A stretch of 64,000 bases of DNA from Squalus acanthias (lineage: Eukaryota). Positions 48,542 through 51,500 of the stretch are shown here, one piece after another. Made by a program: the position numbers and the translations under genes. The notes under the pieces are model-generated. The model had not been told where the DNA came from, made no database searches, and was given only the letters and a program-made list of their open reading frames with translations. Location: NCBI GenBank assembly GCA_030390025.1, contig CM059431.1:95358001-95422000 (forward strand), written 5' to 3'. Numbering within the stretch: position 1 is the first letter of the stretch; every line of letters starts with the position of its first letter.

Positions 48542-51500
48542 GGGTGCCACGGAGAAGCGGTGGTACAGGCGGCTGTGATCAGATTGTCCAAATCCATGAG
48601 AGAACAGCCTATGGCTACAGTTAAAATAGGAAATAGCCATTTGGACCTTCTGGTCGATACCGGTGCAACAATGTCCTCTGTACCCCGCTCCGTGGATATA
48701 CCCGCCAGTCAATTTAACGTTGTAAGCATGGGAGTAGCCGGTATCCCTATGTTAGAACCCCTCTCCAAACCTACCGAAATTCAAGTGCACGGGCAATCCG
48801 TCACAGACACCCTCATAATTTCCCAGACCGCCCCTCTCCCTATGTTGGGAAGACAGGGTTTATGTAAATTGGGAGCAGTTATATACTGCACTCAAGGCGG
48901 CATGTTCATGGAACTGCCTCAAATACAAACTCATCAGCTAATGAATTTAATGATAGAGAAAAAGCAAGTAGACGGAGCCCCCATTTTGTACTGCTGGCAG
49001 CTGAATAGCAATCCTTATGGCCAATTGGTAAAAAATGTATACCAAGCCTTGCAGGAATTGGAAGATCCTCAGGGGCAGTATTTACAATATCTAATTGAAA
49101 CCAGTAGAGAAAAGAAACGGACCCATTGTACGGCATGGTACACGCATAAAGAAACACCCAATTATCAAGAATTGGTTTGCTCATACCTAAACCAGCCAGA
49201 ATTGCTGCAGATTTCACCTTATTTATTCTTTGGAGATAAAGGCCTGGGAATGTTGGTTCACCTTACACACGAACAAAAAGAAAGATTTAGGATGCATCAC
49301 ACATCCGAACCCCACCTGACTATAGCAGTCAGAGCCCCGGCTAAGGCGAAGGAAGTGGGGGAGATGATAAAAAGAATACAACACCACAAGCCAGTCTATT
49401 CCATCACATTGCCAATTCAAGCTGGAAAGGTGGAGATAGAATTCTTTAATGAAACAGAAGGAAAAATTCGCTGGTTAAGAAAAGAATGGGATACTATTTT
49501 TGAAAGACAGCAGCCCCCTAAGGAAAATCCGCAATTGTCACCATAGGCATTGACTAAAGTACCTTGTGAATTATGGGCAAAGCACAAGAATCATGTGGGA
49601 AAGGTGCATTTGGCACCTGAACATAGGGTCCAGCCACAGAAGAATGCTGTTTTGCCCTGTCTAAAGCAGTACCGCCTGGCCCCAGAGGCCGAGGAAGGAA
49701 TAGCAGCAGTAATACATTCTTTACTGCAGCAAGGGGTTTTAGTCAAAACACAGAGCCGCTGCAACACTCCTATTTTGCCCATCCCGAAAGTAGGATGACC
49801 AAATGACTGGCGTTTTGTGCAAGATCTCCGGGCGATCAATAAAATAATCATTCCCATTGCTCCCTTGGTGCCAGATACCAACATCATCCTCTCCTCTATA
49901 CCAGCTGATGCAACTACCTTTTCGGTTATCGATTTGTGTTCTGCTTTCTTCTCCATACCACTGCATAAGGACAGTCAATATCTGTTTGCCTTTACTTATA
50001 AAAATCAGCAATATACCTGGACCAGGTTGCCCCAGGGGTATACTGAAAGTCCTGCGGTGTATGCGGCAGCGGTTAAAAATGACTTGGAGGAATGTCAGTT
50101 ATCGGATCAGTCCACCTTAATCCAGTACGCAGATGACCTTTTGGTTGCCTCCCGAACCGGGCCAGACTGCCAAAAAGATACTATAAAATTGCTCCAGCAT
50201 CTGGCTAGCAGGGGACACAGGGTGTCCTCCGAAAAGTTGCAGTTCTGCCAAACGTCCGTCCAGTATTTGGGTTTTCAGTTGGAATATGGACAGCGAAGAT
50301 TGGGACTGGAAAGAATAAGACCAGTGGATAAAGTGTCGATCCCGCGAACAAAGAAGGACATTTTGTCGTTTCTGGGAATGGTGGGTTATTGTAGACAATG
50401 GATATATGACTACAGAGAAATGGATGCGGTCTTACGATCAGCTACGCTGCAGACAGTGCCCCCCATAGTCGAATGGACGTCAGAACGAGATAAGGCATTC
50501 AGTTATCTAAAAAAGGCTATGGTCAGTGCTCCCACGTTAGGACTACCTAAGTATAATAAGCCTTTTCAGTTATACATCAATGAAAGAGAAGGCTTTGCAA
50601 CAGGAGTACTGGCACAAGAACATGGGGGAGGAAAAAGGCCTGTAGCATATTACTCTAGCCTTAGCAGCCGTAGTGAGAGGCATGCCAGCCTGCTTACGAG
50701 CCATTGCTGCAACCGCCACAATAGTGGAAAAATCCATCCCTATTGTTCCCCACGCAGTACTGCTATTATTAAATTCGGCAGCTACTCAGCACTTTACGGC
50801 GGCAAGAAGGACTGGGTATGAGATAATCCTCTTGTCACACTCTAATTATACCTACCAGCGATCACCAGCTGTCAACCCGGCGACCTTTGTGCCAATACCA
50901 ACAGAATATCCAGATGAACCAGAGCACGACTGCTTGTTAACTGTTGAAGCCACCACTACACCCAGGCCAGATTTGCTAAGTGATCCTATTGATAATCCTG
51001 ACTTGATCCTCTTCACGGATGGTTCTTCGCACCGACCTAGTGATGATCAACTATTAGCAGGTTATACGGTGGTGACTCCTCATGAAGTATTGGAAGCTTA
51101 TGCGTTGCCACCTGGCACATCTGCACAGGCAGCTGAACTATATGCATTAACCAGAGCCTGTATTTTGGCTAAAGATCAAAGCGTCAATATCTATACTGAC
51201 TCCCGTTATGCATTTGGGGTAGTGCATGATTTTGGACAATTATGGAAAAACAGAGGTTTTATTACATCCTCAGGAAAACCTATTAAGCATGCGCAAATGG
51301 TGTTAAATTTGTTGGAGGCTATTCAGTTGCCAAGTAAAATTGCAGTACTAAAATGTGAGGCCCACACCATGGCAGGTGATGAAGTCTCATGTGGAAATAG
51401 GTTTGCTGATAGTGCGGCTAAAGAGGTCGCACTGAGGCAGGTCCCACAGCTTCAAGCCGCCAAAAATACCGTTAGTAACTTTCCTCCAGAACTTCCTAGT

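Follow-up and report, generated by a model that had tools for sequence, protein, structure and literature searches.

Very few accessory enzymes are known from retroviral Pol proteins. The textbook case is the dUTPase of beta-retroviruses and non-primate lentiviruses, which is part of the pro/pol polyprotein and is carried into virions. Here, a further candidate is described in an endogenous retrovirus (ERV) of the shark Squalus acanthias, namely a domain resembling the catalytic part of CNPase, a two-histidine (2H) phosphoesterase, which is encoded in pol between the protease (PR) and the reverse transcriptase (RT). The ERV lies in a stretch of 64,000 nucleotides (GenBank assembly GCA_030390025.1, contig CM059431.1, positions 95,358,001 to 95,422,000), which is called the window below. 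Coordinates given without a sequence name count from the first base of the window, and all features named lie on its forward (+) strand. Like the dUTPase, the domain would be a nucleotide-metabolising enzyme in pro/pol, whereas fold, chemistry and position in the polyprotein differ.

The closest described proteins are CNPase and its goldfish homologue RICH. Their catalytic domain is known by family and structure (PF05881; PDB 2i3e, 2yq9, 1woj and 2ilx), and CNPase carries a membrane anchor at its C-terminus. The ERV domain resembles this catalytic domain in several respects: both His-x-Thr (HxT) motifs are in register, including the Cys of motif 1, an aromatic residue follows five positions past the His of motif 1, a Ser stands three positions before the His of motif 2, the distance from the His of motif 2 to a Gly is 15 residues, and the domain length is similar. 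It differs from CNPase in that the N-terminal kinase-like domain is absent, that it is encoded inside pol and that it forms a clade of its own. Furthermore, its C-terminus is not free, so that an anchor of this kind is absent; it also lacks the acidic loop ahead of motif 2, and the two His are separated by 63 residues compared to 79.

ORFs (open reading frames) for CNPase in epsilon-like ERVs of ray-finned fishes are mentioned in a review by Naville and Volff from 2016, which credits Basta et al. 2009 (PMC4977317). The shark copies are like these elements in being CNPase-related sequences in class I retroviruses of fishes, and a relative from hake was also found here. They differ from them in their shark hosts, whereby the comparison extends to the single sentence of the review. 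An earlier annotation of the window, which was made by a model from the sequence alone (first-pass annotation), had mentioned 2H domains in some retroviral Pol proteins of teleosts, and this fits the review sentence. By that sentence, the idea of a CNPase in retroviruses of fishes was published in 2009; the shark copies add to a known kind and do not form a new category. A literature search, in which subscription journals were thinly covered, gave no other paper on a retroviral CNPase or 2H domain and none for sharks.

A second group of described viral enzymes comprises the LigT/AKAP7-like 2H proteins, i.e. ns2 of mouse hepatitis virus (MHV), NS4b of MERS virus, the C-terminus of rotavirus VP3, Acb1 of phage T4 and the phosphodiesterase (PDE) of pigeonpox virus. 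These are virus-encoded accessory enzymes with two catalytic His (PMC11410667), which is what they have in common with the ERV domain. However, they belong to another branch of the superfamily and occur as independent proteins or as C-terminal domains instead of being inserted in a retroviral Pol. If a 2H phosphodiesterase is conserved between PR and RT in shark and teleost lineages, it would add to the few accessory enzymes of Pol and would tie retroviruses to those viral 2H enzymes which counter nucleotide-based immunity or act in RNA repair.

The segment between protease and reverse transcriptase

In the pol frame of the ERV, a segment of 212 codons without a stop (48908..49543) lies between the Pfam RVP match and the N-terminus of RT. 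The first-pass annotation had noted about 190 extra residues at this place and, within them, two HxT motifs at 49124 and 49313, 63 codons apart; segment, positions and spacing were all recovered. Motif 1 (His73-Cys74-Thr75 of the segment, ..THCTAWY.., 49124..49132) pairs with His230-Cys-Thr232 of CNPase, and motif 2 (His136-Leu-Thr138, ..EPHLTIAV.., 49313..49321) pairs with His309-Val-Thr311; the His codons are 49124-49126 and 49313-49315. The frame had been described as uninterrupted, which holds for the segment, but Pol as a whole is broken by a TAG at 49544-49546 and a TGA at 49796-49798, both private to this copy.

Likewise, the two named motifs are present, but they are not the only ones. 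The segment contains five Hx[TS] (residues 73, 118, 130, 131 and 136), and a hydrophobic residue follows only in HCTA (73-76) and HLTI (136-139). When the segment was shuffled 20,000 times, at least two Hx[TS] occurred in 22% and at least five in 0.1% of the shuffles. Since a pair is that common by chance, the HxT pair by itself is weak evidence; it is the conservation of the motifs which exceeds chance.

Conservation was examined among the relatives of the segment in the host genome and in protein databases. The host genome gave 63 matches, 47 of which belong to the window's own ERV family (72-100% identity, partly fragmentary). The other 16 belong to a second ERV lineage with 25-31% identity to the window segment; eight of these were retrieved (24-30% identity), and all eight have the order protease-segment-RT and both motifs. 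A scan of 1.84 billion representative proteins yielded five matches. Four are proteins with the order PR-segment(-RT), one from a sawshark (40% identity), one from a hake and two unnamed; the cluster of the hake relative includes another member named Gag-Pol. The fifth match, a bacterial-looking low-complexity repeat protein, was judged spurious. A word-indexed protein search with the ERV alignment gave no match, but this index misses known relatives as well and is uninformative on the rarity of the domain.

Alignments of seven and nine ERV sequences with 21-41% identity to the window segment were used to score invariant columns; the seven lineages come from sharks and a teleost. The invariant residues are Y28, H73, C74, T75, G109, L119, S133, P135, H136, G151 and M153; at position 138, there is either T or S. 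Both motifs are thus kept across homologous ERVs, a point on which the first-pass annotation had made its own proposal depend. Within the window's own family, both His and motif 2 are kept at 30 of 30 loci and the Thr of motif 1 at 29 of 30, whereby L028 and L030, two of these loci, are fragments of a single copy.

Some copies of the ERV are arranged conspicuously in the host genome. At C1:15859912-15921422 and C1:27332539-27345181 (L021-L025 and L027), copies are spaced by ~20 kb and ~12 kb and have near-identical breaks, which suggests host tandem duplications carrying the provirus instead of separate integrations.

Assignment to the CNPase/RICH family

A profile of seven ERV domains was compared with 177,635 PDB sequences. 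Among the 25 matches, 22 are CNPase or RICH, with both motifs aligned (best E values 2.1e-4 for RICH and 1.7e-3 for CNPase). The remaining three are ORF904, an archaeal plasmid primase, and were taken as noise. In addition, nine ERV domains were compared with 15 vertebrate CNP sequences using hhalign; the CNP set had been collected with the CNP exon of the host itself, and 15 of the 120 listed matches were aligned. This gave a probability of 95% and an E value of 3.7e-8 over 117 columns, which span residues 70-182 (49115-49453), beginning immediately ahead of motif 1 and reaching to the strands at the C-terminus. In both the PDB-profile and the hhalign alignment, S133-x-P-H136-x-T138 pairs with Ser-Arg-Ala-His309-Val-Thr311 of CNPase.

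Further positions agree beyond the motifs. The residue five past the His of motif 1 is aromatic in eight of nine rows; it corresponds to Phe235 of CNPase, which stacks on the base according to a description of that enzyme (PMC4643303). The distance between the His of motif 2 and the invariant Gly is 15 residues in all seven lineages without any insertion or deletion, which equals His309-Gly324 of CNPase, and four of the seven lineages have a Pro at the position of Pro320. This stretch spans the β5-α7 loop, which the same description calls unique to CNPase (PMC4643303). A language-model look-up ranked tRNA_lig_CPD and 2H-SAK clusters at the top (score 0.93-0.94), which was used as a lead only.

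The 2H phosphoesterase domain proposed between PR and RT is thus supported by the invariant motifs as well as by profile and profile-profile searches. The comparison proposed along with it has to be replaced: the first-pass annotation had placed the segment beside ns2, NS4b, VP3 and Acb1, yet none of these is among the 25 PDB matches. Matches of the CNPase, LigT, AKAP7 or ns2 kind had been expected; CNPase/RICH was obtained by profile, while LigT, AKAP7 and ns2 are absent from these 25. Judged by its sequence, the domain is a predicted 2H phosphoesterase of the CNPase type and not of the ns2 or Acb1 type. The best explanation for the data as a whole, which we consider likely to be correct, is a CNPase-type 2H phosphoesterase which is integral to pol in a class I retrovirus lineage of sharks and teleosts.

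Several results weigh against this assignment. The Pfam CNPase model (PF05881) did not match the segment at E values up to 1 and matched none of nine members at E values up to 10. The identity between ERV domain and CNP is only ~16% over the 117 columns. The N-terminal 72 residues alone gave no significant hhalign match to CNP (probability 0.1%, E 0.54). For Arg307 of CNPase, a conserved counterpart is absent in the ERV domains, the position two before the His of motif 2 being variable. Within the ERV family, few changes were found, and the ratios of non-synonymous to synonymous substitutions (dN/dS) range from 0.15 to 1.3 and are uninformative. Structure prediction gave low confidence in both attempts, with a mean predicted local distance difference test score (pLDDT) of 37.9 without alignment and 44.8 with the nine-sequence alignment. 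Using the latter model, Foldseek found no match at E values up to 0.001, and re-ranking with VIA gave no Z of 5 or more; the best value, 4.2, is at a level which is common for unrelated folds according to the notes of the tool.

Within the N-terminal 72 residues, in which a counterpart of the aromatic Tyr168 on the first strand of CNPase was sought, Tyr28 is invariant, and the local alignment that scores best runs colinear to that strand. A search of the PDB with the single window sequence gave no match. The first ten Foldseek rows for the model with pLDDT 44.8 consist of nine CNPase chains and one YjcG (best E 0.07). In the VIA re-ranking of this model, rows 1-39 are all CNPase/RICH (Z 3.2-4.2), followed by MHV ns2 in row 40 (Z 3.2); Z differences within 1 count as tied, and on this poor model ns2 ties with CNPase/RICH. 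The structural matches are weakly consistent with the sequence result, but the models are too poor for testing a two-lobed 2H fold.

The relationship between the domain and the CNP gene of the host was examined in a tree of nine ERV domains and 15 CNPs. Both groups lie on opposite sides of one long branch (support 100/99), and the window domain groups with the sawshark sequence. By this split, the domain was not copied recently from the CNP of the shark itself. A single ancient acquisition would be the simplest reading, whereby the tree has no outgroup and fixes neither direction nor number of events. A scan of the host genome with the Pfam CNPase model found only the host CNP gene, which has its best match in CNP of a sevengill shark (81%), with further sharks and rays coming next. 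In host CNPs, PF13671 lies upstream of PF05881; the ERV domain has no such N-terminal P-loop kinase-like domain and is flanked by PR and RT instead.

To estimate constraint, two sublineages of the second ERV lineage (L031 and L033) were compared. Synonymous sites are saturated (proportion of synonymous differences, pS, 0.77), while the proportion of non-synonymous differences (pN) is 0.30 for the domain, 0.36 for PR and 0.17 for RT. By these values, the domain has been constrained between ERV lineages about as much as the protease.

The relatives are named 'uncharacterized protein' or 'Peptidase A2 domain-containing protein' in the databases. Since the domain is missed by Pfam as well as by such names and is thus invisible to routine annotation, the ERV-domain profile built here could serve to locate it in vertebrate genomes.

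Possible activity and competing explanations

The domain lies in pol, in frame and downstream of the gag stop, and would be produced solely within the Gag-Pro-Pol read-through polyprotein. Being translated within Gag-Pro-Pol, it may be packaged in virions along with it and either be freed by the protease or remain on the N-terminus of RT. Both His-x-Thr motifs are intact, for which reason hydrolysis of phosphodiesters by a 2H mechanism is most likely: as in CNPase, a water molecule would be activated by one His, while the leaving group would receive a proton from the other. The domain was probably an active 2',3'-cyclic phosphodiesterase in the replicating ancestors of the present copies.

The substrate we favour would be a 2',3'-cyclic phosphate, either of nucleotides or at the 3' ends of RNA, be it of the tRNA primer or of the genome. 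Such cyclic ends would be left by metal-independent ribonucleases of the host, and the product would be a 2'-phosphate with a free 3'-OH. Next to a primer-dependent polymerase, end repair of primer or template may be speculated on; destruction of a nucleotide immune messenger by the domain would be less likely. The complete proposal, a virion-packaged and catalytically competent CNPase-type enzyme at the PR-RT junction that undoes ribonuclease damage or destroys a cyclic or 2',5'-linked immune nucleotide, is put forward tentatively. If true, retroviruses would thereby have their first counter-defence enzyme of the 2H type. This enzyme would moreover be a relative of the catalytic domain of CNP, which is induced by interferon and inhibits the assembly of retroviruses. 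The domain frame is intact in natural copies, so the proposal is directly testable.

Other explanations differ in what the domain does or whether it is a CNPase relative at all. It might be a virion-borne phosphodiesterase against immune messengers like ns2/NS4b, rotavirus VP3, Acb1 or the PDE of avian poxviruses, degrading 2',5'-oligoadenylate (2-5A) or 2'3'-cGAMP (cyclic GMP-AMP). The domain belongs to the same 2H superfamily with its catalytic His intact, and viral 2H enzymes were repeatedly recruited against OAS and cGAS signalling, as outlined in PMC11410667. The first-pass annotation had proposed checking the host for OAS and RNase L. The OAS part is provided by a cluster of OAS1_C exons (25 of 26 matches, C13:83.21-83.49 Mb), but for RNase L there are only two weak sets of KEN-domain exons on C75, one of which has RNase L as best PDB match (E 0.005). 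Also, the pathway of OAS and RNase L is reported as functional in a cartilaginous fish (PMC10400998). Against this stand the 25 PDB profile matches, in which ns2, VP3, AKAP7, LigT and Acb1 are missing, and the substrates given for CNPase itself in PMC4643303 are 2',3'-cyclic phosphates and neither 2-5A nor cGAMP. In addition, one relative is part of a teleost Gag-Pol, while ray-finned fishes are reported to have lost OAS-RNase L (PMC10400998); hence, this pathway cannot be the target of the family as a whole. We regard an immune-messenger phosphodiesterase as unlikely.

Even less probable, in our estimation, is a module without enzymatic function or with irrelevant catalysis, e.g., a spacer binding RNA or Gag, or a decoy directed at CNP, which as a restriction factor of the host blocks the assembly of retroviral particles. 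CNP of the host side is an interferon-stimulated inhibitor of HIV-1 assembly as summarized in PMC10761555, the domain has neither the N-terminal kinase-like domain of CNP nor a C-terminal end of its own, since it continues into RT, and fold and activity are predictions from sequence, the models being of low confidence. However, the few columns that are invariant at 21-41% identity include the four catalytic residues of the two motifs, and such invariance across diverged lineages is hard to explain without catalysis. The likeness to CNPase could also be convergent or spurious, with the segment being a lineage-specific Pol linker of another fold. The missing Pfam match would fit this, as would the low-confidence models with structure scores under the usual thresholds and the 22% of shuffles in which two HxT motifs arise by chance. 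Yet two independent sequence-profile tests agree with both motifs in register, 22 of 25 PDB matches fall in one family and CNPase/RICH entries occupy rows 1-39 of the structural re-ranking; we consider a convergent or spurious likeness highly improbable. An enzyme of the CNPase type remains the preferred explanation for the segment.

The OAS1_C-matching exons in the host genome (25 of 26 matches) are clustered at C13:83215061-83487587, which indicates that OAS genes are tandemly expanded in this shark. Two strong KEN-domain loci in the host were identified as IRE1 and rejected as RNase L. The weak KEN-domain exons are found at C75:38256-41193 (L045) and C75:124051-126981 (L046); L045 matched RNase L in the PDB with an E value of 0.005 and IRE1 with 0.88. 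Both exon sets may be duplicated RNase L genes, and RNase L is likely present in the host by this match.

The provirus and its surroundings

The provirus spans 45896-56339 (10.4 kb) and contains, by ORFs and Pfam matches, frames in the order gag-TAG-protease-segment-RT-RNase H-integrase-env-like. It is bordered by two long terminal repeats (LTRs) of 394 bp each, which were detected by blastn of the two flanks and are 97.97% identical (8 differences). The 5' LTR (45896..46289) begins with TG and ends with CA, and matches the 3' LTR (55946..56339). Five bases past the 5' LTR, a stretch beginning with TGG and read directly from the sequence (46295..46312) has the appearance of a primer-binding site; it may be complementary to tRNA-Ser at the 3' end of the latter. 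A divergence of 2.0% between the LTRs points to a provirus several million years old. The age would be ~10 million years at 1e-9 substitutions per site per year, whereby this rate is an assumption and the rate in sharks may differ.

The gag region (46766..48541) starts with MGNNGS and has a CCHC zinc knuckle near its end (Pfam zf-CCHC, E 8e-7). Its frame shifts at least twice in the window copy, near 47000-47100 and near 48070-48100, and the ORFs 46730-47101, 46998-48101 and 48068-48541 are in different frames. It ends with a TAG at 48539-48541, where 26 of 28 other copies have a stop as well, and pol continues in-frame. A gag stop followed by in-frame pol is the read-through layout typical of gamma/epsilon-like genera.

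The retroviral aspartyl protease (48542..48907) is in the same frame as gag; Pfam RVP (E 2.1e-8) covers residues 21-114 of the translation of 48542-49543. From 48542 to 49546, there is one single open frame of 334 codons, which includes the PR-RT segment with the CNPase-like domain and terminates with the TAG between domain and RT (49544..49546). This codon is a stop in none of 26 alignable copies. RT follows at 49547..50821 (Pfam RVT_1, E 1e-28); its TGA at 49796-49798 is a stop in none of 27 alignable copies. The RT frame is lost at ~50650-50820, where ORFs in two frames overlap, before RNase H is reached (51000..51431; Pfam RNase_H, E 7.9e-24, residues 119-262 of the translation of 50646-51521). 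The integrase with zinc-binding and core domain (51525..52561; rve, E 1.8e-16; Integrase_H2C2, E 1.4e-8) is split over at least two frames with the ORFs 51525-52082 and 52244-52561.

The best PDB matches of RT were gammaretroviral RTs (E 1.3e-67) with foamy-virus Pol next, in a library which contains no epsilonretroviral RT. This proximity to gammaretroviral RTs points to a class I, gamma/epsilon-like retrovirus.

Downstream, env-like reading frames (52793..55273) were identified from ORFs, the assignment to env resting on their position. This region is interrupted by an RT fragment resembling a long interspersed nuclear element (LINE) at 53364-54400. Contigs of all four public runs examined join 53363 to 54401 and skip these 1037 bases, which implies other copies without the LINE-like fragment. 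With low depth, these contigs span the larger part of the provirus, and the runs may be DNA; over the LINE-like fragment, depth is hundreds of times higher, as expected of a high-copy element. The window copy is a dead provirus: the domain frame is intact, whereas gag, pol and env are broken by stop codons, frameshifts and the LINE insertion.

The provirus is inserted in an array of a 24-nt satellite, which extends over 44217-45895 (70 copies) and 56338-64000 (319 copies) with 83-86% matches. A 5-bp repeat, CCACA, may be present in the flanks, but it is ambiguous within the satellite array. Just upstream of the satellite, at 41810-44113, lies an ORF of 767 codons, which resembles the RT of a non-LTR retrotransposon by the motifs read.

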